Below are positions 3,428 to 63,185 of a DNA stretch of 64,000 bases, piece after piece. The notes under the pieces are model-generated. The model saw only the letters and a program-made list of their open reading frames with translations. It made no database searches and was not told the DNA's origin. The stretch comes from Candidatus Omnitrophota bacterium (GTDB lineage Bacteria; Omnitrophota; Gorgyraeia; JABMRG01; JAFGKX01): contig JAZDPX010000006.1 of the NCBI GenBank assembly GCA_043797125.1, forward strand, positions 70,921-134,920. The letters are read 5' to 3'. Numbering within the stretch: the stretch's first letter is position 1; each line of letters begins with the position of its first letter. Position numbers and translations under genes: made by a program.

Positions 3428-3453
3428 GTAGCGCAGGCTTAAGCCTGCGCTAC
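3428..3453. repeat. Family A perfect palindrome GTAGCGCAGGCTTAAGCCTGCGCTAC (copy 1)
   Basis: 26-bp perfect hairpin. Identical copies are at 42733-42758 and 61727-61752. Confidence 0.8.
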
Positions 3454-8617: not shown

Positions 8618-8735
8618 TTTATCCGCCTTCCTTGCTTTTGAACTTCGTGGTAGATAACGTACGGCGGATAACCCGCCGTAGGCTATCTACTCCGAACTGC
8701 CCAATACACGAAGGCGGGCTATCTGGCATTCCTTC
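8618..8735. repeat. Family C composite GC-hairpin repeat (GGCGGATAACCCGCCGTAGGCTATCTAC ... ACACGAAGGCGGGCTATCT), copy 1
   Basis: It shares TTATCCGCCTTC, GAACTTCGTGGTAGATA, GGCGGATAACCCGCCGTAGGCTATCTAC and GAACTGCCCAATACACGAAGGCGGGCTATCT with 15378-15580. It overlaps the tsaB 3' end. Confidence 0.75.
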
Positions 8736-9867: not shown

Positions 9868-9965
9868 TATGGGGACGTTTCACTCCCAAGATTGGGAAGT
9901 GTCCCCTTTACCCCACTTCTATGCTCTGGGGACACTTTCCACGCTTGGGAGTGAAACGTCCCCTT
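9868..9965. repeat. About 95-bp nested inverted repeat between thiL and tsaE
   Basis: GGGGACGTTTCACTCCCAAG ... CTTGGGAGTGAAACGTCCCC forms a 20-bp outer stem around GGGAAGTGTCCCC / GGGGACACTTTCC. Confidence 0.75.
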
Positions 9966-9977
9966 TTTTTCTTTTTT

Positions 9978-10874
9978 TTAAAAGTGTTCATATCCTTCAG
10001 GCTCAAGCCGGCTTTCCTTGCCCCTTCTATCAACCAAAACCATCCTTCCTGCATTATTCGTTATCTCGCCTATCGCGGTTATCTTTATTTTTCTTTTTTT
10101 GGAACTTGAAAGCAGCCTTTTGGCGTCTTTTTTCGCTGTCGTAAAAAGGAGCTCAAACTGCTCGCCTGTTGTAAGCGCTCTTTTTACGGATGCGCCTTCA
10201 TAAGGAATTAAAGACTCGTAAATTTTAGCGCCTTTTTTGCTTTCAGATAAAATGCGCCATAGGTCAAGCGCAAGTGAGTCAGATATATCTATCATGGAAT
10301 TTATCTTAAAATTATCCGCCAAAAACTGCGCTTCTTTAATCCTGGGAGAAAAACCTAAATCATTAGGATAAGGCCTTAAAGCCCCTGTTATAAATATCAC
10401 ATCTTGATCCTTCGCGCCGCTGCGAAGGGCAAGCCTTTTCTTGGATACTTCACCGATTAGAGTAACGGATAAAACCATTTTTTTTGAAAAATTTGTATCG
10501 CCGCCTACTATGGATATGCCGAATTCAGAAGCTGTCTTATGCATGCTAAGATAGAGCCTTTTAATAAAATCGACACTAATGTCCTTTGGCAGGCCTACTG
10601 AAACAAGCGCCCATTTTGCCTTGCCGGCGCATGCTGCTATATCGCTTATGTTCACCGCCATTGCCTTATGGCCTATCTGTTCCGGGGATGCCTTATCCAG
10701 CCTAAAATGCGCATCTTCAATTATCATATCGGTAGTAACAAGAAGATATTTGTCTTTAGTATATTTAAGCACGGCGCAGTCATCGCCAATGCCTTTAAAC
10801 ACCGAAGGGGGAGTCTTTGTAAGTGCGGCTATTTTATTTATTAGAGCTATTTCGCCTATGTCGCGTAGTTTCAT
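9978..10874 (-). CDS. thiL: Thiamine-monophosphate kinase
   Basis: The AIR-synthase-related fold shows in ...GDDCAVL...LLVTTDMIIEDAHF. Confidence 0.75.
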   Translation of the reverse strand: MKLRDIGEIALINKIAALTKTPPSVFKGIGDDCAVLKYTKDKYLLVTTDMIIEDAHFRLDKASPEQIGHKAMAVNISDIAACAGKAKWALVSVGLPKDISVDFIKRLYLSMHKTASEFGISIVGGDTNFSKKMVLSVTLIGEVSKKRLALRSGAKDQDVIFITGALRPYPNDLGFSPRIKEAQFLADNFKINSMIDISDSLALDLWRILSESKKGAKIYESLIPYEGASVKRALTTGEQFELLFTTAKKDAKRLLSSSKKRKIKITAIGEITNNAGRMVLVDRRGKESRLEPEGYEHF

Positions 10875-12965: not shown

Positions 12966-14491
12966 ATCCTTGGAAAAAGCGGCACAGGCTTTGATACTGT
13001 ATGGCCCTTTTTGATATAACCTTTATTCAATATCAGCCCTGCGCAATCTGTTATATCCTCTTTTATTCCAAGCTGCAAGGCCATCTTACTGCTTGTAGAC
13101 GGCATGGACGGGTATATTAATACGGCGATCGTCTCCAACGCCTTTAACAGCGACATTATGAATGCTGCCAGCCTTTGGGCGTCGCCTGACTTGGCAATAT
13201 TCCACGGTTTTGAATCCTCTATATATTTATTAGCGGCATTTATAAGCGCCCAGATGCCTGCCAGGGCCTTGCTTATCTGCAGCTCGCCCATCTGCTTGTC
13301 GACTTCTTTAATAGTATCGTTCCTTAGTTTAAGCAGCTGTTTTTCCTCGTCTGACATAAGCCCTTCTGAAACTATTTTCCCGTCGAAATATTTATGCACC
13401 ATATTCAGGGTTCTGTTCAGCAAATTACCTAAATCATTTGCCAGGTCCGCGTTGTATCTTTCTATAAACAAGGCCTGATTAAAATTGCCGTCTAAGCCCA
13501 TTGTCACCTCCCTTAACAAAAAAAGGCGCAAGGGGTCTGCCCCGTATTTTTCTATTAAAGGTTTTGGATCTACCACGTTGCCCTTTGACTTAGACATTTT
13601 CTCTCCTGACATAATCCACCAGCCGTGCGCCAAAACGCATTTTGGCGGTTCGATATCCAAGGCATGCAGCATTATGGGCCAGTAGACCGCGTGAAAACGC
13701 AGTATATCCTTGGCCATTACATGTATATCCGCGGGCCATATCTTTTTAAAATTATCAGGATTGCCGGCAAAGCCTGGGGCGCTTATATAATTTAACAACG
13801 CATCAATCCACACATAGGCTACATATTCCGGAGCAAAAGGCATCTCGATGCCCCACGAAAGCCTCTTGCGCGGCCTGGAAACGCAAAGATCAGGCAGCGG
13901 TTCCTTTAAAAGGCCCAGAACTTCGTTTTTTCTGAAATCCGGCTTAATAAAATCAGGGTGCGCGAGTATGTGGTCTTTCAGCCAGCCCTGATATTTTGAA
14001 AGCTTAAAAAAATAATTTTTCTCGCTTATATATTCCGTATCGCGGGCGCAATCAGGGCAGAGCTTATCCTGAACAAGTTGAGTTTTCTGCCAGAATGTTT
14101 CGCAAGGCACGCAGTAATAACCGTCATATGTATCCTGGAAGATATCGCCTTTTTCATAAAGTATCTTCAGGGCCTTTCCCACAGCCTGCATGTGACGGGG
14201 CTCTGTCGTCCTTATAAAATCATCGTAGGAAATATCCAGGGCCTTCCAAAGCTCTTTAAATTTCAAGACTATTTCGTCGACAAATTCCAGCGTATCCTTA
14301 CCTGAGGCTTCCGCGCAGGTTTTAACCTTCTGGCCATGCTCATCCGTGCCTGTCAAAAAGTATACCTTCTCGCCCTTTAGCCTTTTATATCGCGCTATAC
14401 AATCGCAGATAATCTGCGTGTAGGAATGGCCTATATGAGGGGAGGAATTGACGTAATATAACGGAGTAGTTATGTAAAATATCTTTTTCAT
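12962..14491 (-). CDS. metG: Methionyl-tRNA synthetase
   Basis: HIGH (PHIGHSY) and KMSKS motifs are present, together with zinc-knuckle cysteines. Confidence 0.9.
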
Positions 14492-14496
14492 AATTT

Positions 14497-14580
14497 AGTC
14501 TATGGTCTATGGTCGATGGTCGATGGTTGATGGTCGATGGTTGATTACCGACTATAGACTATCGACTATTGACCATCGAC
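14497..14580. repeat. Family E repeat (GGTCGATGG / GACTATCGAC direct and inverted units), between ricT and metG
   Basis: TCTATGGTCTATGGTCGATGGTCGATGGTTGATGGTCGATGGTTGATTACCGACTATAGACTATCGACTATTGACCATCGACTATT. A related copy lies at 29470-29545. Confidence 0.7.
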
Positions 14581-15368
14581 TATTTATTATAATCCACCTT
14601 CACGTGCCTGCCGTCTTCAAGCTCAACCGTAACAACGCGTTTTAAAAAATTAACATCCACTACCTTCCCTGTTTCGTTCTGATATTTTATCTTTTGCCCC
14701 GGGTGCGGCAGGCCCTTGGAAAGTTTCTTGTAATGGGTATGTTCGTATGACAGGCAGCACATAAGCCTGCCGCAAAGCCCTGAAATTTTTGCCGGGTTTA
14801 GGGGAAGGTTCTGGTCCTTTGCCTGTTTTATCGAAACAGGTTCAAAGTCCCTCAAGAAACTTCTGCAGCAAAGCATCCTGCCGCAAGGCCCGAAACCTCC
14901 GAGGATCTTCGCTTCGTCGCGCACGCCGACCTGCTTTAATTCAATCCTGGCCTTGAACATCTTTGCTAAGTCTTTGACTAATTCCCTGAAATCTATTCTT
15001 TCCTCAGCTGTAAAATAAAATATGATCTTGCTGCAGTCAAAAGAGAATTCCCCCTTGATCAACTTCATGTTAAGTTTATGCTGGATTATTTTACCGTCGC
15101 AGGTCTTCATGACCTCTTTTATTTTTTCGCGGTTTTCTTTTATTTTGTTTATGTCTGCCTGGTCGGCGATTCTAACTGCTCTTGGAAGCTCCTCTTTAAG
15201 CTTTTTTTCATCCAACACCAGCTCTGCCTCTGATAAAATCTGCCCGTAATCAAGGCCCCTGTCCGCTTCGATAATAACATACGCTCCGGGAAAAACATTT
15301 AAATCGCCTATGTCATAAACCTCTATCTTGCCGAATTCTCTCTGTCTTATCTGTATCGCTCTCTTCAT
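14580..15368 (-). CDS. ricT: PSP1 C-terminal domain protein RicT/YaaT
   Basis: Strong similarity pattern to B. subtilis YaaT: ...IFYFTAEERIDFRELVKDLAKMFKARIELKQVGVRDEAKILGGFGPCGRMLCC. Confidence 0.8.
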   Translation of the reverse strand: MKRAIQIRQREFGKIEVYDIGDLNVFPGAYVIIEADRGLDYGQILSEAELVLDEKKLKEELPRAVRIADQADINKIKENREKIKEVMKTCDGKIIQHKLNMKLIKGEFSFDCSKIIFYFTAEERIDFRELVKDLAKMFKARIELKQVGVRDEAKILGGFGPCGRMLCCRSFLRDFEPVSIKQAKDQNLPLNPAKISGLCGRLMCCLSYEHTHYKKLSKGLPHPGQKIKYQNETGKVVDVNFLKRVVTVELEDGRHVKVDYNK

Positions 15369-15377
15369 TGTCTATCC

Positions 15378-15580
15378 TTTATCCGCCTTCGCTGTTAATA
15401 AGAACTTCGTAGTAGATATGCTTCGGCGGATAACCCGCCGTAGGCTATCTACCTTCGCCAAGCAGCTTTCGCGCTTGGCTTCGGCGGATACGCCCGCCGA
15501 AGGCTATCTACACCGAACTGCCCAATACACGAAGGCGGGCTATCTACTACGAACCCACCCGATACACGAAGGCGGGTTAA
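15378..15580. repeat. Family C composite repeat, copy 2 (longer, with internal duplication), between holB and ricT
   Basis: Same modules as copy 1, with extra units GGCGGATACGCCCGCCGAAGGCTATCTAC and CACGAAGGCGGG repeated. Confidence 0.75.
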
Positions 15581-16428: not shown

Positions 16429-17056
16429 CTTTTGCTGCTTTCTGTATAAGCGCCTGTATCTGGTGGATACTGTTCTTTTGCGCTGAAAATACCATTATGC
16501 GCTTTTTGTCTTTTCTTGCAAGCGCCAGGTATCCGTTTCTTACCTTACAATGAAAAGATACAGGCCTTTTTTCTATTCTGTCAATAAAACCTTTGGCTGT
16601 TTTTGAACGTCCCAGGCCCAAGCGCGCCTCAATATCCAAGATAAACGTAATATCCGGCTTTATATTTCCGACACTAAAATTATTAATATTATCCAGAGCC
16701 TTTATGTCAAGGCCTAAGCCATATCCCTGATAAGCCAGTGTGGCGTCTGCAAACCTGTCGCATACAACTATCCTGCCGGATTCAAGGGCAGGTATTATTT
16801 TTTCCGATACAAGCTGTGCCCTTGCCGCGATATAAAGAAACGCTTCTGCCTTTGAGTCAATAGCTATGTTTTTTGATTTTAACAAAATAGTCCTTATAAG
16901 CTCGCCTAATTTTGTAGCGCCGGGCTCCCTAAGGTGCAGCACATTAAGCCTGCGCCTTTTTAAAAATGCGCAAAGCAGCTTCGAGTGCGTGGATTTCCCG
17001 CTTCCCTCCGGCCCCTCGAATGTAATAAATACGCCTTTTTTCATGCCGGCCGCCAA
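16400..17056 (-). CDS. tmk: Thymidylate kinase
   Basis: GVFITFEGPEGSGKST is a P-loop; the LID DRF motif is present. Confidence 0.85.
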   Translation of the reverse strand: MAAGMKKGVFITFEGPEGSGKSTHSKLLCAFLKRRRLNVLHLREPGATKLGELIRTILLKSKNIAIDSKAEAFLYIAARAQLVSEKIIPALESGRIVVCDRFADATLAYQGYGLGLDIKALDNINNFSVGNIKPDITFILDIEARLGLGRSKTAKGFIDRIEKRPVSFHCKVRNGYLALARKDKKRIMVFSAQKNSIHQIQALIQKAAKDAISRQYIR

Positions 17057-18441
17057 ACTGTACCCTCCTTAGTATCTTCTATTGCTATGCCTTTGGCCTT
17101 TAATTCCTGCCTTATCAAATCTGCCTTTTTAAAATCTTTGGAGTTTCTTGCTTTATTGCGTTCGCTTATCTTTGACTCAACATAAGTCTCTAGTTGTGCG
17201 TCTATCTGTTTGCCCCTTAAAAATAGGCCGAATATGCCGCCCAACTCTTTTATCAACGTCGCTGCATATAGCATGTTTTCATCCGATGATTTATTTGCCT
17301 CTCTAAGCATATCAAATAAACAAGCCAATGCCTGCGGGGTGTTGAAATCGTCGTCCATTGCCTCTATAAATTTTTCTTTAAGCGCGTCTATTTGGGCTGC
17401 CTGCCCCGCACCTGAACGAAGTGAATGGTGCGGGGTGGGCTCTAGTCTATTTACTTTATCAAATAATATATAAAACCTCTCAAGCGCTGCCTTAGCCTCA
17501 TTCATCCTCTCGTCGCTAAAATCTATGGGCTGGCTGTAATGGCTGCTGATCATAAAAAATTTGATTGTTTCCGCGTCGTATTTTTTCAAAGCAGCCTTAA
17601 TTGTTATAAAATTCCCTAAAGACTTTGCCATCTTTTGGCCGTTTATGGTCAACAGGCCGTGGTGTATCCAGTATTTTGCAAATGGTTTACCTGTGCGCGC
17701 CTCTGCCTGCGCAATCTCGTTTTCGTGGTGAGGAAATATCAGGTCCCTGCCGCCTGCGTGTATATCAAGCGTATCTGTCTTTAAAAACTTCTGGCTCATT
17801 ACAGAACATTCTATATGCCAGCCTGGCCTGCCGCCCCCCCAGGGGCTATCCCATGAAGGCTCGCCTTCCTTTGAAGTCTTCCATAACGCAAAATCCAGCG
17901 CATCCTGTTTTTTCTCATCAGGCTCAATGCGCACTCCCTCACGCATCTGGTCTATATTCTGCCCTGAGAGCTTGCCGTAACCGGAAAACTTCTTTACATT
18001 AAAATACACATCCCCGCCTGCTTTATAAGCATAGCCTTTGTCTATCAATACCTTTATATATTCGATAATATCAGCAATAGTCTTGGTTGCCCTTGGTTCC
18101 TCTTTATCTTTATCTAATATGCCTTTACGTATATTCAACAACCCTAAATCTTTGTTATAGCTTTCAATGTATTTACTAACAAGTTCTTTCCAATCAACTT
18201 TCAGCTCTTTGGCGCGGTTTATTATTTTATCGTCGATGTCTGTAATGTTGCGCACAAAATTAACCTTATAACCTCTATATTCTAAATACCGTCTCATTAC
18301 ATCGAAAACATAAAGGCTCCTGGCATGGCCTACATGAGACTCGTCATATACGGTTACCCCGCACGTATACATATTCACCGTCTTCGGCTTTATCGTCTCG
18401 AACTCTTCTTTCTTGTTTGTAAGCGAATTATATATTTTCAT
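17041..18441 (-). CDS. cysS: Cysteinyl-tRNA synthetase; carries an in-frame palindromic repeat insertion (family F)
   Basis: HIGH (HVGHARS) and KMSKS (KMAKSLGN) motifs are present. The insertion peptide LEPTPHHSLRSGAGQAAQ is encoded by the element at about 17395-17450. Confidence 0.9.
   Translation of the reverse strand: MKIYNSLTNKKEEFETIKPKTVNMYTCGVTVYDESHVGHARSLYVFDVMRRYLEYRGYKVNFVRNITDIDDKIINRAKELKVDWKELVSKYIESYNKDLGLLNIRKGILDKDKEEPRATKTIADIIEYIKVLIDKGYAYKAGGDVYFNVKKFSGYGKLSGQNIDQMREGVRIEPDEKKQDALDFALWKTSKEGEPSWDSPWGGGRPGWHIECSVMSQKFLKTDTLDIHAGGRDLIFPHHENEIAQAEARTGKPFAKYWIHHGLLTINGQKMAKSLGNFITIKAALKKYDAETIKFFMISSHYSQPIDFSDERMNEAKAALERFYILFDKVNRLEPTPHHSLRSGAGQAAQIDALKEKFIEAMDDDFNTPQALACLFDMLREANKSSDENMLYAATLIKELGGIFGLFLRGKQIDAQLETYVESKISERNKARNSKDFKKADLIRQELKAKGIAIEDTKEGTVWRPA
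17395..17450. repeat. Family F hairpin element inserted in-frame in cysS
   Basis: GGGCTGCCTGCCCCGCACCTGAACGAAGTGAATGGTGCGGGGTGGGCTC, with stem CCCCGCACC / GGTGCGGGG. It is flanked by GTCTATTT ... AGTCTATTT, a possible 8-bp direct duplication. Confidence 0.7.
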
Positions 18442-19385: not shown

Positions 19386-19844
19386 TTATTTCAGCAAAAC
19401 AACGGCATATGCTGCGATTGCTTGCGAATTGCGCGTTCCCTCTTCGGTTGTTGCTTTTATGTTGATATTATCCAAATCTATGCTTAGCGTCTTTGCAATA
19501 TTTTCCTTCATTTTATTTTTAAAGGGGAGCATCTTCGGCTCCTCTGCTATTATCACGGCATCTATATTATGTATGGTGTAGCGCTTGCTGCTTATGATAG
19601 ATAGGGTCTCTTTTAGGATCTTAAGGCTGGATATGCCTTTGTAGCGGCTGTCTGTATTCGGAAAATGCTCGCCTATATCGCCGCAGGCTGCCGCGCCTAA
19701 AAGCGCGTCGCATATTGCGTGTATAAGTACATCCGCGTCGGAATGGCCTAGCAGGCCTTTTGTATGAGGAATCCTCACCCCGCCAATAATCAGCTTGCGC
19801 TTTTCTACAAGCTTGTGTATGTCGTAGCCTATTCCTATTCTCAT
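19386..19844 (-). CDS. ispF: 2-C-methyl-D-erythritol 2,4-cyclodiphosphate synthase
   Basis: [12 protein letters not shown]...[19 protein letters not shown]. Confidence 0.9.
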
Positions 19845-20530
19845 CTTCTCGCCAGAGCCTGCGCTATCTTCAAATCTTCTCTCGTCGTTATCTTAATGTT
19901 TCTATAATCCCCGGGTATTACCTTAACCTTTATGCCGCATGCTTCAGCAAGCGAAGCATCGTCGTTAAACCTCCATGCCCTCACATTTAATTTTTCATAA
20001 GCTGCGAGTAGCTGCTTTCTGTTAAAAGCCTGGGGGGTCTGCGCCTCCCACAAAGAGTTGCGGTCCGGCGTATTTAATACGTATCTGTTTTTTAAATTTA
20101 TTTTTTTTATCGTGGCTTTAACTCCGACTGCTAAAAGGCAGTTGGTGCCCTTTGAAACCGTGTCGGCGCATTTTTTTATTAAAGAAGGCGCTATAAACGG
20201 CCTTGCCGCATCGTGTATCAAAACATAAAAAGAATCTTTGCAGGCGCATAATCCATTATAAACAGAACGCGCGCGCGTTGAACCGCCTGAAACTATACGG
20301 CTTATCTTTTTATACTTTCTTTTTTCAATAAGGCCTTTTGCCTTTTTTAAAAAATACCTTGCTGCGACAAAAACAATATCATCTACGAATTTTGATTTTT
20401 CAAATGCATCGAGCGAGTAAAATAAAAGTTTCCTGTCGCCGATTTTAATTAACGGCTTAGGCGTGGCAAGGCGCATCCTCTTGCCCGTGCCGCCGGCCAC
20501 TATTATTGCTGTTATCTTTTTCTTATCCAA
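19841..20530 (-). CDS. ispD: 2-C-methyl-D-erythritol 4-phosphate cytidylyltransferase
   Basis: ...[12 protein letters not shown]... is a nucleotidyltransferase fold; the gene is adjacent to ispF. Confidence 0.85.
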
Positions 20531-21556
20531 TTATTTCTGTTTCGGATAATACACGTTTGAAACCTTGGCAAATATCATCCTGCCTGCCGCGGTCTGCAAA
20601 ACGCTGGTGACCACCACGCTTTTGGTCTGGCCGATAAGCTGCCTTCCGCTTTCAACCACTATCATGGTGCCGTCATCCAAATAGCCAATGCCCTGATTTT
20701 GCTCTTTGCCTTCCTTTATGACCTTTACCTCGACTATCTCGCCCGGCAGCATAACAGGCTTTAACGCGTTAGCAAGCTCATTAATATTAAGCACTGTAAC
20801 ACCCTGCAGCTCCGCTACCTTGTTAAGATTATAGTCATTGGTAAATATCCTGGCATTTAATATCTTTGAAAGCTTTACCAGCTTTGAATCCACCTCGGGT
20901 ATATCAGCGAAATCCTCTTCATGTATCTTAACGTCAACATGAGGCTTTTTCTGCATCCTATTAAGTATATCCAGCCCCCTGCGCCCGCGGTTTCGCTTTA
21001 AAGAATCCTGCGAGTCCGCAATCTGCTGAAGTTCCTTAAGCACAAACCTCGGTATGATAAACCTGCCGTGTATAAAATGCGTGTCGCATATATCCGCGAT
21101 TCTTCCGTCAATTATTACGCTGGTGTCCAATATGATTATCTCTTCATCTTTATCCTGCCTCGAAAATTTAACATAAGGTATGACAAGGCTGAACTCATCC
21201 TTGCCCCTTATGGCAATGGTCATCCCTAGATAACAAAATATCAATGTCAATACAACCTGCATTATCAATGCCAGCGTTTCATTAAGCTGGTCTATGGACC
21301 TTAATATAAAGGAATCTGTAAGGATCTTTGACATAAGCAGTCCGAACAAAAGGCCAAACACCCCGGCGGAAAGCCCTCTTATAGATATCCGTCTTAAGCT
21401 AAACTCCGCAAAAATAATGAGCAGCGCAACTACAGCCCCTCCTACCATTCCTACAAAAGGCCAGTAACTATTATATTGCTCGAATATAAGCCCTATCTGA
21501 TAACCAACCGCCGTACTTATAACCGCAAAAAATATGCGTATGAAAAAAATTGTCAT
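20531..21556 (-). CDS. yacL: YacL-like membrane protein with PIN and TRAM domains
   Basis: N-terminal TM helices, then a PIN domain ([13 protein letters not shown]), then a C-terminal TRAM-like beta domain. Positioned radA-yacL-ispD as in Bacillus. Confidence 0.7.
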
Positions 21557-22940: not shown

Positions 22941-23048
22941 TTTAATTAAAAATTCAAAATTAAAAATGCAAAATTGCAATTAAAAATTTAAAATTTAAAA
23001 TTTTGAATTTTTAATTGTAATTTTTAATTTTACATTTTTAATTTTTAA
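22941..23048. repeat. Family B AT-rich palindromic repeat (AATTAAAAAT..AAAATTGCAATT..), copy 1, between mlaD and radA
   Basis: Long AT-rich dyad built from AATTAAAAATT / AATTTTTAATT and GCAAAATTGCA units. Related copies are at 30440-30556 and 44884-44960. Confidence 0.7.
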
Positions 23049-23049
23049 T

Positions 23050-23730
23050 TTATCTAATGCCTTTATCCTTATCCTCTTCTGTCTTCCTCGGCTCTCTTGG
23101 CTTGCTCAAAAGCTTCCAGGGGTTTTGCCTTATATCCTTGATCATCGCTTTTATATCTTCCGATATCTCTTCTATATTATTATATAATTTATCATCCATA
23201 AGCAGCTTGCCGACCGTACCTTCTTTTGCCTTTACCTTATCCAGGATGCCATTTATAGAATCCAGCATTGTTTCTATTTTAAGTATGACATCATAACCTT
23301 TTTGCGTCATCTTCTGCATCGAAACGGAATCAAATCCTATGATAACATCTCCGTCCTGCAAAACAGGGCTCTCGGGCGTGCCGGGAATTATCTCAACATA
23401 TTTTTCTCCTATAAGCCCCAATGTGTTTATAAGCACTGTGGCGTCCTTCTCAATCTTGGCATCATCAGTAAGCCACACCATTAATTCAACTTTTGTCTTT
23501 TTGGTCTCGGGGTCCTTAAATATACTAGTGCTTTTTACTTCTCCTACTTCGACACCGGCAACTCTGACAGGAGCCGCTATCTGAACGCCGTCGGCAAAAT
23601 TCAGGTGTATTTTTATATTGTATCCTGTTTTAAAGAGAAAATCCCCTATTGAAAAAACTACCATGGCAAGAAGTATAATGCCTACAAATACGAATATACC
23701 TATTCTTATTTCAAAACTATTCTCTTTCAT
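23050..23730 (-). CDS. mlaD: MlaD (MCE domain) phospholipid transport substrate-binding protein
   Basis: An N-terminal TM segment is followed by an MCE domain. Confidence 0.75.
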   Translation of the reverse strand: MKENSFEIRIGIFVFVGIILLAMVVFSIGDFLFKTGYNIKIHLNFADGVQIAAPVRVAGVEVGEVKSTSIFKDPETKKTKVELMVWLTDDAKIEKDATVLINTLGLIGEKYVEIIPGTPESPVLQDGDVIIGFDSVSMQKMTQKGYDVILKIETMLDSINGILDKVKAKEGTVGKLLMDDKLYNNIEEISEDIKAMIKDIRQNPWKLLSKPREPRKTEEDKDKGIR

Positions 23731-29469: not shown

Positions 29470-29545
29470 TTGGTCCATAGTCTATGGCCAATGGTCTATA
29501 GTAAATTATCGACCATAGACTATCGACTATTGACTATCGACTAAA
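29470..29545. repeat. Family E repeat, copy 2, between ilvE and mcsA
   Basis: GGTCCATAGTCTATGGCCAATGGTCTATAGTAAATTATCGACCATAGACTATCGACTATTGACTATCGACT uses the same units. Confidence 0.7.
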
Positions 29546-30439: not shown

Positions 30440-30556
30440 TGTTTAATTAAAAATTTAAAATTAAAAATGTAAAATTGCAGTTCAAAATTAAAAATTGTTT
30501 TAAATTTTGAATTTTTAATTGTAATTTTGAATTTTGCATTTTTAATTTTTAATTAT
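30440..30556. repeat. Family B AT-rich palindromic repeat, copy 2, between lolD and ilvE
   Basis: TTCAAAATTAAAAATTG ... CAATTTTTAATTTTGAA dyad centred on GTTTTAAA. It shares AAAATTGCA and TTTTAATTGTAATTTT with copy 1. Confidence 0.7.
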
Positions 30557-31274
30557 TCTCCAGCTTTCCATTAGCTAAATACTTGACATTCTTAAATAAT
30601 TTAGCATATTCACGCTCATGTGTCACTATAATAAAAGAACAATTTTTCTTACTGTTAAGCTCTTTAATCAACTCAAATACAGCCACAGAATTATCGTGGT
30701 CTAAATTACCCGTAGGCTCATCGCATAATACTATATCGGGTTTATTCATCAATGCCCTTGCTATTGCCACCCTCTGAGACTCCCCGCCTGAAAGTTGCGA
30801 CGGCCGGTGGCTGGTTCTCTTTTCGAGCCCAACCGCGCTTAAAAGCTCCTGCGCCCTTTGCTTTGGGCTTTGGGCTCTGTGCTGTGGGCTGCCTGCCCCG
30901 TATCCGAGCGAAGCGAGTGGTGCGGGGTGGGCTCCAATCAGCGCGGGCATCATAACATTTTCCAAAGCGGTAAATTCGCCAAGCAGGTTGTAAAACTGGA
31001 ATACAAATCCAATGCGTTCATTGCGTATCCTGCTTATCTTTGCATCATTCATCTTATATACAGAGGCGCCGTCTAGCAGGACCTCGCCTTTAGTCGGTGA
31101 ATCCAAAGCGCCGAGTATATGAAGCAGCGTGGACTTGCCGCAGCCTGATGGCCCGAATACCAGCATTATCTCGCCGGCACAAAGAGAAAGATCTATTCCG
31201 TTCAATACATGCAACTTGCGGCTTCCGTCCTGATATACCCTGTGCACGTTTTTCGCGGCTAAAATTTCACTCAT
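30549..31274 (-). CDS. lolD: Lipoprotein-releasing ABC transporter ATPase LolD; carries an in-frame repeat-derived insertion
   Basis: Walker A (GPSGCGKST), signature (LSGGESQRVA) and Walker B are present. The insertion GAHPAPLASLGYGAGSPQHRAQSPKQ is encoded by the heptamer tract plus family-F hairpin at about 30858-30945. Confidence 0.8.
   Translation of the reverse strand: MSEILAAKNVHRVYQDGSRKLHVLNGIDLSLCAGEIMLVFGPSGCGKSTLLHILGALDSPTKGEVLLDGASVYKMNDAKISRIRNERIGFVFQFYNLLGEFTALENVMMPALIGAHPAPLASLGYGAGSPQHRAQSPKQRAQELLSAVGLEKRTSHRPSQLSGGESQRVAIARALMNKPDIVLCDEPTGNLDHDNSVAVFELIKELNSKKNCSFIIVTHEREYAKLFKNVKYLANGKLENN
30858..30947. repeat. Heptamer tract plus family F hairpin inserted in-frame in lolD
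   Basis: CTTTGGGCTTTGGGCTCTGTGCTGTGGGCTGCCTGCCCCGTATCCGAGCGAAGCGAGTGGTGCGGGGTGGGCTCC. The GCTGCCTGCCCCG...GGTGCGGGGTGGGCTC part matches the cysS insertion. Confidence 0.7.
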
Positions 31275-42732: not shown

Positions 42733-42758
42733 TAAGATAGTAGCGCAGGCTTAAGCCT
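42733..42758. repeat. Family A palindrome (copy 2), between rph and rdgB
   Basis: Identical 26-mer. Confidence 0.8.
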
Positions 42759-42789
42759 GCGCTACTACTATACGCTATCGACCATCTTT

Positions 42790-43512
42790 TTACAGTTCCA
42801 GCCTCAACACATCTTTCTGCTTCTTAACCAGGCTCGCGATCCCCAACTTTGCAAGTTCAAGCATCTGCTCCATCTGCATCTTAGTAAATAGCGCGCCTTC
42901 CGCAGTGCCCTGAATTTCCACGAATTTTCCGCTTTGCGTCATAACTATATTCATATCAACATCAGCCTTAGAGTCTTCCTCGTAGGTCAAATCCAGCATA
43001 GGTTTACCCTGCACAATGCCTACGCTTATCGCGGCAACATAATCTATAAGCGGTATATTTTTAATAAGCCCGTCTTTCTGCATTTTTTTAAGCGCTAAAG
43101 CCAGGGCCACAAATGCGCCAGTAATGCTGGTTGCGCGGGTACCGCCGTCGCCCTGGACCACGTCGCAATCTAACCATATGGTGCGCTCGCCCAAACAAGA
43201 AGCATCAACTACTGATCTTAAGCTTCTGCCGACTAACCTTTGTATTTCCTGGGTCCTGCCTCCTATTTTGCCACGCGAGGATTCGCGCGAGATACGCTCC
43301 CTGCATGAACGCGGCAGCATGGCATATTCAGCTGTAATCCATCCCTTGCCTAAGTTCCTCATAAAAGGCGGCACGCCATCCTCAACCGATGCCGAACATA
43401 CCACTTTCGTATTTTCCGCTTCGATTAAGCAGGAGCCTTCCGCGTATTTTAAGAAATCCTTTTTTATAGTAACTTTTCTTATTCCGTTGTTTGTGCGCCC
43501 GTCAGCTCTCAT
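42790..43512 (-). CDS. rph: Ribonuclease PH
   Basis: [16 protein letters not shown]... has a 3'-exoribonuclease domain 1 and 2. Confidence 0.9.
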
Positions 43513-44026
43513 ATATGTTCCTCCCTTTGGTATCTATTCCCACAATTACCGGAAAATCCTCAACCTTCAACTTGTAAATTGCTTCCGGGCCAAGGTCTGT
43601 GTACGCTATTTGTTTGGCAGACTTCACCCTTAACGCCAGATATGCGCCTGCTCCTGCAGGCGCGACAAAATATACGCCCCTGTATCTTTTTATGGCATTT
43701 AGCACTTCCTTGGAGCGATTTCCCTTTCCTATCATGCCAAGCAGGCCTTTGGATAAAAGCATTGGGGTAAATTCATCCATTCTTTTGGACGTGGTTGGCC
43801 CGCATGCGCCTATTGGTTTTCCCTTTGGCGCAGAAGTCGGGCCGCAGTAGTAAATTATTTGCTCTTTTATATCTATGGGCAACTTTTTTTTCTTAATAAT
43901 GCATTCGCACGCTCTTTTATGAGCAGCATCGCGCGCTGTGTATATAACCCCTGAAAGCAAAACCTCGTCTCCCGCTTTAAGTTTCGCGGCATCTTTCCTT
44001 GTAATCGGCAGCATTATCCTTTTCAT
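43502..44026 (-). CDS. Class I fumarate (or L-tartrate) hydro-lyase beta subunit
   Basis: Fe-S hydro-lyase beta-type subunit pattern (...[20 protein letters not shown]...); it pairs with the alpha subunit upstream. Confidence 0.75.
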
Positions 44027-44877
44027 ATTATAACCTCTGCGCTACGGAGAGCATGGCAGCATACATTCACGCAAACCGGCAGACCAGCAATGTGCGTCGG
44101 ATATGTTAATATGTTGACTCCAAGGCAGGTTGTCCTACCGCCTAAGCCCATGGGGCCGATGTTTAGACGGTTGATTTCCGTCAACAAATCTTTCTGTAAT
44201 TTTGCTGTGAGCTTTGAGCTGTGGGCTGTGGGCTGTGGGCTGTGGGCTGTGGGCTCAAGGAGCGCTTTCTTTGCCAATAGACAGGCGTAATCTGCGGTCC
44301 CGCCTATGCCTACGCCTATGATATACGGCGGGCAGGCATCCGCGCCTGCGCATTTAACAACTTCGACAATAAATTTTTTAATCTCGCCGATTCCAACAGT
44401 TGGATTAAACATCTTTAGCTTAGTCTTGTTCTCGCTTCCAAAACCTTTTGGCATTACTGATATTTTTATTTTATCGCCGGATATGATATCGTAGTGTATG
44501 ACTGCCGGCGTATTGGTGTTTGTATTTTTTCTTACCAAGGGATCATCCACTACAGATTTTCTTAAACATCCCTGTTTATACGCTGCTTTTATGCCATTAT
44601 TTATTGCCTTGCTTACATCGCCTATGATCTGTACCTTATTGCCTATTTGACAAAATACTACTACCATACCTGTATCTTGGCATATCGCTATTTTTTGGCA
44701 CCTAGCAATACAGGCATTCTCAATTAATATCTTAAGCATCTTTTTAGCAACAAGCTTTGTTTCGGTTTTAACCGCTTTTTTTAAAGCAGATAAAACATCG
44801 CCGCGTAAATTAAAATTCGCCTTTAACGCCGCCTCACACACCTTTTTTTCTATCTCTTTCACCTTTATTTTTCTCAT
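44023..44877 (-). CDS. Class I fumarate (or L-tartrate) hydro-lyase alpha subunit; contains an in-frame (GCTGTGG)n-derived insertion
   Basis: Fe-S hydro-lyase alpha region (...CQDTGMVVVF...). The PTAHSPQPTAHS insertion is encoded by a heptamer tract at 44205-44260. Confidence 0.75.
   Translation of the reverse strand: MRKIKVKEIEKKVCEAALKANFNLRGDVLSALKKAVKTETKLVAKKMLKILIENACIARCQKIAICQDTGMVVVFCQIGNKVQIIGDVSKAINNGIKAAYKQGCLRKSVVDDPLVRKNTNTNTPAVIHYDIISGDKIKISVMPKGFGSENKTKLKMFNPTVGIGEIKKFIVEVVKCAGADACPPYIIGVGIGGTADYACLLAKKALLEPTAHSPQPTAHSSKLTAKLQKDLLTEINRLNIGPMGLGGRTTCLGVNILTYPTHIAGLPVCVNVCCHALRSAEVII
44205..44260. repeat. Heptanucleotide tandem repeat: GCTGTGG x5 perfect, 7-mer periodicity over 8 units, inside the fumarate hydratase alpha gene
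   Basis: GCTGTGAGCTTTGAGCTGTGGGCTGTGGGCTGTGGGCTGTGGGCTGTGGGCTCAAG. Confidence 0.8.
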
Positions 44878-44883
44878 TTTTTA

Positions 44884-44960
44884 CCTATTTTTAATTTTTA
44901 ATTGTAATTTTGCATTTTGCATTCCTGCCTGCCGGCAGGCAGGTTTAATTTTGAATTTTT
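44884..44960. repeat. Family B repeat, copy 3, plus GC palindrome CCTGCCTGCCGGCAGGCAGG; overlaps the queF 3' end
   Basis: TTTTTAATTGTAATTTTGCATTTTGCATT shared with the other copies. It supplies the queF C-terminus and stop. Confidence 0.6.
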
Positions 44961-54796: not shown

Positions 54797-55233
54797 TGGT
54801 GGAGGCGAGGGGAATTGAACCCCTGTCCTTGAGCGTTCAGCAATAGGCGCTACATGCTTGTCCTGTGCTTTGAATTCGCCCCGATAATCTTGCATAGGCA
54901 CAATCTCATCGGGACTAGCTTTTAAAAATCTCATCCTGCTCTCTAAAAGCTAAAAAAGCGGGACCAGCCTATTAATGACGCCAGACCCGGGCTAAATAGG
55001 CAAACCCGGCTGACGGTAGCCGCGTATTAGGCGGCTAGCGGCATCATGGAAACCATTCCTGTGTTAACAGGAACAACTTCCATGACTTTAGCGCGAATTG
55101 TATCCGCACTTATCATGTAGTCGGCTTTTGCTCCTCGCTTTCGCTCGGAGTCCCTTACGGGACAAGGCCAACCGACCAACCTTGGCATGCTCCTAGTTGC
55201 CCAATCGCATCAAGTCGAACCCTGTTCGCCCCC
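54797..55233 (-). ncRNA. ssrA: tmRNA (SsrA)
   Basis: The minus-strand 5' end GGGGGCGAACAGGGTTCGACTTGATGCG pairs with the 3' end ...GGACAGGGGTTCAATTCCCCTCGCCTCCACCA to give a tRNA-like acceptor/T-arm with CCA. It lies immediately downstream of smpB. A candidate tag ORF ends ...MMPLAA-UAA at about 55026. Confidence 0.8.
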
Positions 55234-55239
55234 ATTTGT

Positions 55240-55305
55240 GTATTGAGTATTGAGTCGTGAGTATTGAGCACTCAATACTCAATACACACGACTCACGACT
55301 AAACA
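55240..55305. promoter_or_regulatory. Imperfect palindrome of GTATTGAG / CTCAATAC units between smpB and ssrA
   Basis: GTATTGAGTATTGAGTCGTGAGTATTGAGCACTCAATACTCAATACACACGACTCACGAC. It could be the smpB terminator and/or ssrA promoter region. Confidence 0.4.
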
Positions 55306-55311
55306 CCTAAT

Positions 55312-61726: not shown

Positions 61727-61752
61727 CGTAGCGCAGGCTTAAGCCTGCGCTA
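61727..61752. repeat. Family A palindrome (copy 3), between gspF and the HExxH gene
   Basis: Identical 26-mer with flanking CG. Confidence 0.8.
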
Positions 61753-61772
61753 CGTTTATAGATGATCGACCA

Positions 61773-63039: not shown

Positions 63040-63185
63040 CATAGCTGAAGTTAGAGTATCAGATGATCAGATTACCAGAACAGGATTATCAGAGTATCAG
63101 AGTATCAGATTATCAGAATTTTATCTGATACTCTGATTCTCTGATGTTCTCGTTCTGATACTCTGATTCTCTGATGTTCTAATAC
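63040..63185. repeat. ATCAGA/TCTGAT-rich direct and inverted repeat region between gspE and gspF
   Basis: ATCAGAGTATCAGAGTATCAGATTATCAGAATTTTATCTGATACTCTGATTCTCTGATGTTCT...GATACTCTGATTCTCTGATGTTCT. It contains a dyad and a 24-bp direct duplication. Confidence 0.7.

Follow-up and report, generated by a model that had tools for sequence, protein, structure and literature searches.

Heptanucleotide tandem arrays in a surface loop of FumA and in other housekeeping genes of Omnitrophota

A 64,000-nucleotide stretch of a Candidatus Omnitrophota genome (assembly GCA_043797125.1, contig JAZDPX010000006.1, positions 70,921 to 134,920), which in its entirety is referred to here as the window, carries five perfect tandem copies of a seven-base unit inside fumA, the gene for the alpha subunit of fumarate hydratase. 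Seven is not a multiple of three, and the question is what such a tract is doing in the middle of a gene of central metabolism. The preliminary description of this DNA saw in it either a contingency switch in an unexpected gene or an unstable site tolerated because of redundancy. Our analysis points in another direction. The tract is probably a copy, still young and in frame, of a dispersed repeat of the heptanucleotide-array type, with AGCCCAC as the unit, and has replaced an ancestral surface loop of FumA. It could mutate by slippage, yet it is probably no contingency switch, and it is best described as what it most likely is, a latent frameshift hotspot that has not evolved as a switch.

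On the + strand, positions 44204-44255 read GCTGTGA GCTTTGA (GCTGTGG)x5 GCT, and the run can be written as (GCTGTGG)n or equivalently as (GGGCTGT)n. The perfect units occupy 44218-44252 in the GCTGTGG phase and 44221-44255 in the AGCCCAC phase of the coding strand (Table 1). Tandem Repeats Finder (TRF) gives 44204-44255 a period of 7 with 7.4 copies and 93% matches, and in our own period scan the tract is the top period-7 run of the window, with none in the shuffled sequences. A 14-mer search allowing up to 3 mismatches gave 12 matches where 2.0 were expected, a number reached in 0 of 100 shuffles. The five perfect in-frame units and eight-unit periodicity noted earlier are thus seen in the sequence itself, by TRF and against shuffles; the tract does lie where it was placed, at 44205-44260, with the positions shifted by a few bases.

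The eighth and last unit, AGCAAAA, overlaps conserved Ala-Lys codons of the host gene. Translation of the open reading frame (ORF) across the tract gives LLEPTAHSPQPTAHSSKLTAKLQK, in agreement with the PTAHSPQPTAHS reported earlier, and the peptide of the array itself is EPTAHSPQPTAHSSKLTAK. The codon cycle AGC CCA CAG CCC ACA GCC CAC is free of stops, and since 7 and 3 are coprime the array gives the identical seven-residue cycle in all three frames. There is no synonymous variation among the perfect repeats at the DNA level. The loop DNA is 61% G+C and the unit 71% G+C, in a gene of 42% G+C. The template strand of fumA, which has (GGGCTGT)5 at 44221-44255 (+), fits the G-quadruplex motif G3+N1-7 with at least 4 repeats; the sense strand of an array in a related locus, (GGGGTCA)4.9 at 2165-2198 of L126, also fits it, and the remaining arrays do not. 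Judged by its sequence, this G3N4 motif is a possible contributor to instability of the fumA tract.

The protein has 284 residues and an intact reading frame, and is 100% identical to a fumarate hydratase at NCBI from a Candidatus Omnitrophota metagenome-assembled genome (MAG). The AlphaFold (AF2) model has a mean predicted local distance difference test score (pLDDT) of 93.5 and a predicted template modelling score (pTM) of 0.90. The structure in the PDB closest to it is 7xky_A, the two-subunit fumarate hydratase of M. jannaschii (template modelling score 0.89; E 2.5e-51), relative to which FumA has a 5-residue insertion at the position of the tract. The block of residues 211-220 has a pLDDT of 60, with values above 90 on both sides. 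Among 120 homologs this loop is 7-26 residues long, with a mode of 12, and in a 20-sequence alignment it is the only sizeable indel region seen. As far as the enzyme is concerned, we take the tract to be, most likely, a linker that is disordered and neutral. Invariant residues, C274 and H275 among them, lie downstream of the loop, and the alpha subunit would therefore be inactivated if the frame were shifted within the tract; the earlier statement that gain or loss of one unit throws fumA out of frame is arithmetically true, also for two units, and the Cys274/His275 region would be lost.

What stood at this position before the array is indicated by orthologs. Loci L122-L125 have the gene order of the window, queD-queC-queE-queF-fumA-fumB-rph-rdgB-asmA, which in L124 and L125 continues to lolD. 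In the nearest FumA homologs, of 63-70% identity, the loop is the canonical RPINKNNPK(K/R)HIAK, and in the closely syntenic orthologs it is the non-periodic canonical RPINKNNPKKHIAK. The DNA for the canonical loop in L122-L125 is 26-33% G+C, has a period-7 self-identity of 0.37-0.40 (0.86 for the window loop) and contains no precursor of the AGCCCAC unit. The segment that bears the array is 51 nt in the window and 36 nt in the orthologs, and because the net gain is 15 nt we are dealing with replacement of the loop and not with clean insertion of a multiple of 7 bases. On these sequence comparisons the array is a lineage-specific replacement of the ancestral FumA surface loop. At the syntenic loci L122 and L124 there are no long heptamer arrays, and the array load thus differs between lineages.

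The unit is also found in two other genes of the window. GTGGGCT occurs on the + strand in 8 copies, all within cysS, lolD and fumA, and every non-tandem copy is next to the hairpin core of either lolD or cysS. In lolD (30549-31274, - strand), read on the coding strand, AGCCCAC (30927-30933) is followed by a 36-nt GC-rich hairpin core (30891-30926) and then by an array, AGCCCAC AGCACAG AGCCCAA AGCCCAA AGCAAAG (30856-30890). In the case of cysS (17041-18441, - strand) the order is AGCCCAC (17435-17441), core (17399-17434) and AGCCCAA (17392-17398), with no longer array. The AGCCCAC unit is thus found directly at both ends of the lolD core and at one end of the cysS core. The two cores are 85% identical; that of cysS folds with a 9-bp stem (-26.2 kcal/mol, z -3.25) and that of lolD is degenerate. 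Both are palindromic repeats in frame in conserved protein genes, and the LolD loop is 13 residues longer than that of the syntenic ortholog, which lacks the insert.

The preliminary description had drawn attention to the lolD tract, CTTTGGG CTTTGGG CTCTGTG CTGTGGG followed by a hairpin (30858-30930), and had placed it tentatively in one family with the fumA tract. The lolD sequence is as described there, and the kinship is supported: in addition to the restriction of GTGGGCT to the three genes, there is 86% identity over 35 nt between the array of fumA and that of lolD, and both end in a common degenerate tail, ...AGC(C/T)CAA...AGCAAA. In terms of sequence the fumA tract is the lolD/cysS type of array minus the hairpin core. 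It has no inverted partner, all of the 14-mer matches being on one strand and the only stem a flanking one of 6 bp (z -2.3), and with regard to the criteria for miniature inverted-repeat transposable elements we found neither terminal inverted repeats nor a target-site duplication at the fumA array.

The hairpin in cysS is bracketed by an 8-nt direct repeat, GTCTATTT (AAATAGAC on the coding strand), at 17386-17393 and 17445-17452, which resembles a target-site duplication. The copies are 59 nt apart, and because 59 is not a multiple of 3 the cysS reading frame works only if both copies pre-existed; a simple target-site duplication event was ruled out for this reason.

Table 1. Features of the window discussed in the text (positions in the window), with the units of FumA loops in related loci.
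Feature	Position	Strand	Remarks
Heptanucleotide tandem array in fumA	44200..44255	-	coding strand (AGCCCAC)x5 AGCTCAA AGCTCAC AGCAAAA
fumA-type gene, alpha subunit of two-subunit class I (Fe-S) fumarate hydratase	44023..44877	-	Pfam PF05681, E 4e-103
Codons for FumA residues 206-221	44215..44262	-	modelled coil between helices 195-205 and 222-236
Beta subunit gene (Fumerase_C)	43502..44026	-	overlaps alpha-subunit stop codon by 4 nt
AGCCCAC repeat family in lolD	30856..30933	-	hairpin core and array, coding strand
Second copy of hairpin element, in cysS	17392..17441	-	AGCCCAC, 36-nt core, AGCCCAA
AT-rich heptamer array, AAAATNN type	44887..44960	-	3' end of queF, just upstream of fumA
FumA loop unit, window			CCCACAG, period-7 identity 0.86
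FumA loop unit, L126			GGGGTCA x4.9
FumA loop unit, L127			AAAAATC x~8
FumA loop unit, L128			ATTACCG x4.6
FumA loop unit, L129			ATTACAC x4
FumA loop unit, L130			CTATCCG-type
FumA loop unit, L131			GTCCACA/GTCGACC x8

The first alternative to be weighed is that the tract is a local microsatellite that arose de novo by slippage of the native loop sequence, with no dispersed family behind it, the resemblance to lolD being coincidental. Short tandem repeats as a rule originate by slippage, and the AAAAATC array of L127 does resemble the A-rich DNA of canonical loops. The unit is moreover not exotic: a scan of a genome collection for (GCTGTGG)3 gave at least 120 stretches from many phyla, with no Omnitrophota and no relative of this locus among the matches listed, and the unit is therefore common and not diagnostic. 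However a unit so rich in G+C is not easily derived from canonical loop DNA that is so poor in it and holds no precursor, and neither the position of the non-tandem copies, each against a hairpin core, nor the tail common to fumA and lolD is accounted for. Dispersal is seen not only for AGCCCAC, at 3 loci in the window, but also for other units, with AAAATNN at 3 loci and ATGGTCG at 2 loci in the window, and AAAAATC at two loci in L127. Finally, a single unit could grow into an array that is in frame only by way of frameshifted intermediates. We therefore think a purely local origin unlikely.

Among the matches listed in that scan the (GCTGTGG)n arrays have 3-14 units, often with several arrays per genome, and many of them are within open frames of great length. 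The gamma proteobacterium HdN1 (L092, L099) has 10 and 14 units in open frames of 1652 and 1247 codons, the Bacteroidota MAG P01_D01_bin.15 has six such loci, and several tracts are at contig ends. GCTGTGG, the one unit scanned, or heptamers generally, may be a widespread coding microsatellite.

In the case of FumA the phenomenon extends well beyond the window. When non-canonical FumA loops are read as DNA, 8 of 8 are heptamer arrays. Seven of them have a period-7 identity of 0.66-0.86, each with its own unit (Table 1), and the eighth, in L132, is an ATTACAC-type array that is split in phase by a 20-nt palindrome, CCTGCCTGCCGGCAGGCAGG. A census at the protein level, in which we counted stretches of at least 7 residues encodable solely by 7-nt-periodic DNA, was positive for 23 of 174 FumA homologs, with every match in the loop, and for 26 of 119 LolD homologs (22%), with every match in one loop; shuffles gave 0.2 in both cases. 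For CysS the figure was 3 of 150 cluster representatives, which have neither names nor taxonomy and so serve as a background control only and not as a sample of Omnitrophota CysS. The window unit, in its ACAGCCC rotation and with peptide TAHSPQ, appears to underlie the LolD loop of another genome (P0197), and close variants of it (AGTCCAC) are present in both the FumA and LolD families. Long LolD loops carry nested hairpin-type peptides, such as HSLRSGTG in P0157, which resembles HSLRSGAG of the cysS core. Our literature search found no account of heptamer or palindromic repeats in Omnitrophota, and 7-base arrays in tolerant surface loops of housekeeping proteins and in gene spacers of the sampled Omnitrophota appear to be an undescribed pattern.

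There is also a preference for period 7. In 133 kb of Omnitrophota DNA period 7 accounts for 10 of the 12 strong tandem arrays, with 0 in shuffles, a count that is biased in that 5 of the 10 are FumA loops picked for their periodic look. When the threshold is lowered and only the window is considered, 10 arrays have period 7, as compared with 0, 3, 3 and 1 for periods 5, 6, 8 and 9.

With regard to history, in a neighbour-joining tree of FumA from which the loop columns had been left out, 64 other non-canonical loops fall into one clade, and the window is an isolated non-canonical tip inside the clade with canonical loops. This topology indicates at least two acquisitions of arrays, followed by turnover of units in the large clade. 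We also considered the recurrent FumA arrays as many independent gains, and rejected that count in favour of one large non-canonical clade plus the gain in the window. Once in place array-derived loops can be stable in length: in one unit family the loop has 11 residues in nine proteins that are 68-72% identical, and in another 13 residues in four proteins that are 76-89% identical. Many arrays are degenerate and have not been kept perfect. There was no frameshift-truncated FumA among the 120 best matches to the 207 residues upstream of the tract; the few short matches stop where their contigs stop, and in no case does a shift of frame terminate the protein at the loop.

These observations bear on the suggestion of a contingency locus, in which slipped-strand gain and loss of units would switch fumarate hydratase reversibly, as in phase variation. 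The phase-variable simple sequence repeats of Haemophilus and Neisseria include heptanucleotide tracts (PMC2651432, PMC7157529), and the fumA tract is like those in being a repeat within an ORF with a unit that is not a multiple of three, such that slippage shifts the frame. It has five perfect copies, and it lies upstream of C274/H275 and of the translationally coupled beta subunit. In many lineages the FumA site holds an array, and several of these arrays have 4-5 perfect units; to judge from sequence the five G3N4 repeats on the + strand, a G-quadruplex-type motif, could promote replication errors. However the arrays are not restricted to conditionally dispensable genes (surface, restriction-modification or host-interaction genes), as would be expected of contingency loci, and the formal property of an in-ORF unit not divisible by three is the only one shared. 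The tract is also short, at five units, and a metabolic enzyme is unlike the known classes of phase-variable gene, as are LolD and CysS. The same class of array is in more than a fifth of LolD homologs, and units with a hairpin are in cysS, where switching would probably be lethal. The choice of site is explained by tolerance, since this is the only variable loop seen. Array-derived loops have kept a constant length over 28-32% protein divergence, many arrays have been left to degenerate, and truncated alleles are absent from the 120 best matches. A switch in fumA is in our view quite improbable. With equivalent arrays in LolD, which is expected to be essential, neither of the alternatives in the preliminary description, switch or site tolerated through redundancy, is supported, and the stable low-complexity linker that it had named as the sign of its being wrong is what the array class shows in the 11-residue loop of the nine proteins.

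Selection could instead have acted on the protein, with the PTAHSPQ repeat a selected flexible linker rich in Pro, Thr and Ser and the DNA periodicity a by-product. Linkers of this composition are common in proteins, and the FumA loop is variable in length and, in the model, disordered. However the perfect repeats are perfect as DNA, without synonymous variation, the units of other lineages encode unrelated peptides (GVRGQGS, KIKNQKS, ITDYRLP, HYTLHIT), array units occur also in non-coding hairpins, and about half of the FumA family has kept the canonical loop, all of which makes selection for the peptide very unlikely. An assembly or sequencing artefact would fit with a single record from a MAG, and with the siting of several (GCTGTGG)n tracts at contig ends, but can hardly be taken seriously for a tract of 52-56 nt, below read length, that leaves a highly conserved gene in frame and has analogues in independent NCBI, ENA, JGI and Logan assemblies.

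We come back to the reading that we prefer, in which the tract is a young copy of the AGCCCAC repeat that has taken the place of the loop. Arrays would spread between loci by copying, either by transposition or by template switching at microhomology (AGCAAA, CCCAA), and would alter their unit number by slippage. Three properties could allow them to survive in genes: the unit has no stop in any of the three frames, each of which gives the same 7-residue peptide, the total length alone has to be a multiple of 3, and additional coil of the PTAHSPQ type would be tolerated in permissive loops only. One unit amounts to a +1 frame shift, and gain or loss of a unit could thus restore the frame after a nested insertion. 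A comparison of L132 with L129 is instructive here, as the loop of L132 is longer by 27 nt, that is by the 20-nt palindrome plus 7, and its frame is restored because one extra 7-nt unit has been added to the palindrome.

There are several points that weigh against this account. The perfect five-unit tract is known from one sequence, a single-member protein cluster. Perfect arrays of 4-5 units are common; they must either have arrived recently or still be undergoing homogenisation, and this implies a degree of slippage. Loops have been replaced with small net change in length (+15 nt here, -3 to +21 nt elsewhere), and simple insertion does not explain this. The copying of arrays, the 7-nt step and the near-length-neutral overwriting of loops are what we infer. 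The taxonomic scope rests on source names, which many of the matches lack. A search of JGI metagenomes for the hairpin termini GCTGCCTGCCCCG...CGGGGTGGGCT gave no relatives and one unrelated high-GC match, the pattern probably being too strict for such a scan.

A second level of organisation is seen just upstream of fumA, where the AAAATNN array at the end of queF is broken in phase by a perfect copy of the same 20-nt palindrome (44924-44943), the removal of which restores the phase of the units. In L132 the identical palindrome is at about 10643-10662 and its removal likewise restores unit phase. The FumA proteins of the genomes that share it are about 60% identical and their array unit types are different. 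The array at the end of queF, with its nested palindrome, shows a two-tier architecture. The palindrome in the window adds LPAGRQ to a C-terminal extension of QueF, which has 150 residues as against 128-133 in several orthologs.

One could go further, and propose for Omnitrophota a two-tier system of stop-free dispersed arrays and nested GC-rich palindromes, served by dedicated machinery with a fixed 7-nt step, that rewrites FumA and LolD loops, builds intergenic hairpins and acts as a frame-restoring buffer. We offer this tentatively, and it is more doubtful than the reading of the fumA tract itself. The machinery might for example be a hairpin-recognising enzyme of the HUH/Y1 type, or repeated staggered cleavage with fill-in. 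L127 has, 9 kb from fumA, a gene (19698-20642) for a 314-residue Y1_Tnp protein of the IS200/RAYT type (RAYT, REP-associated tyrosine transposase; REP, repetitive extragenic palindrome), which is a candidate hairpin-mobilising enzyme.

If our reading is right, a selfish or semi-neutral repeat with a unit coprime to codon length can inhabit essential genes, and an array that is open in every frame can mend its own frame through unit number. Taken by itself, as a microsatellite, the tract would be no more than a curiosity. The interest of the locus rests on recurrent occupation of orthologous loops by arrays and not on a fumarase switch, and it offers a testable model of how, in an uncultivated phylum, tolerant loops of proteins come to be overwritten again and again. 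Further questions are which enzyme is behind the 7-nt step and whether there has been convergence with the heptamer repeats of cyanobacteria. For annotation of Omnitrophota MAGs the pattern can serve as a marker, and we suggest that 7-residue periodic loops and C-terminal tails be treated as repeat-derived and not as functional motifs.

By analogy the closest known system is that of the short tandemly repeated repetitive (STRR) sequences, the heptanucleotide tandem repeats of cyanobacteria, in which the small dispersed repeats (SDR) of Nostoc are reportedly nested. The STRR units include CCCCAGT, TTGGTCA and CAACAGT. The likeness lies in tandem 7-nt units, several dispersed families per genome and tiny palindromes inside arrays, and the window has both dispersed families of heptamer units and a 20-nt palindrome in phase within an array. 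The Omnitrophota arrays differ in host and in unit sequence, which set them apart, in being in frame within conserved genes and repeatedly in the same loops of orthologs, and in that the copies between genes are inverted arrays. Where housekeeping genes are colonised in frame, the closest analogue is the Rickettsia palindromic elements (RPE), which are said to be selfish repeats in frame in genes for housekeeping proteins. The hairpin cores of lolD and cysS may, by this analogy, likewise be extra surface peptide segments that do not destroy function. Unlike RPE, which are palindromes of 100-150 bp without heptamer periodicity, the fumA tract is of 52-56 nt, has no palindrome and replaces a loop. 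To judge by host and by unit sequence, the fumA tract is probably a member of neither STRR/SDR nor RPE.

REP elements and the related REPIN elements are mobilised by RAYT (Y1/HUH) transposases (PMC3116915, PMC3733652). The Omnitrophota DNA resembles them in having short GC-rich hairpins dispersed in the genome, in the GTAG-tagged palindromes of the window and in the Y1_Tnp gene of L127. REPs, however, lie outside genes and lack a heptamer period, and there is no hairpin in the fumA array. We found no RAYT in the window. The GTAG-tagged perfect palindrome, GTAGCGCAGGCTTAAGCCTGCGCTAC, is present in three copies (3428-3453, 42740-42765 and 61728-61753), the second of them in the rdgB-rph spacer, and resembles classical GTAG-type REP elements.

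The window has other repeats as well. There are intergenic hairpins with arms of tandem 7-nt units at 14498-14583, 22944-23051, 29471-29543, 30445-30555 and 55236-55306, and a version with an 8-nt unit at 63051-63182; in examples of these (GTCGATG)n faces (CGACTAT)n and (AATTAAA)n faces (AATTTTT)n. Each takes up the spacer that separates two minus-strand genes, and the families are at 2-3 loci with 79-95% identity. The hairpin at 55236-55306 is directly upstream of the transfer-messenger RNA (tmRNA) gene (54797-55233, - strand; Rfam 153.5 bits, ARAGORN tag peptide ADTIRAKVMEVVPVNTGMVSMMPLAA), and Rfam matched no family in the window except tmRNA. A dispersed repeat of about 85-140 nt with GGCGGATAACCCGCC-type hairpins has two copies, at 8640-8724 and 15402-15576, that are 90-96% identical, and within the latter a 37-nt unit is tandemly duplicated at 15502-15576. 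At 9871-9963, again between two minus-strand genes, is an inverted repeat with 36-nt arms, 92% complementary, and a 21-nt spacer (GGGGACGTTTCACTCCCAAGATTGGGAAGTGTCCCC).

In the related loci, the fumB homolog of L126 (2500-2981) has an in-frame TAG (GKG*RSPEV), and fumA of L126 is intact. L132 has a perfect tandem repeat of five 50-nt units at 13599-13848, directly downstream of a small gene of the GIY-YIG type; the region contains serine recombinase genes as well.

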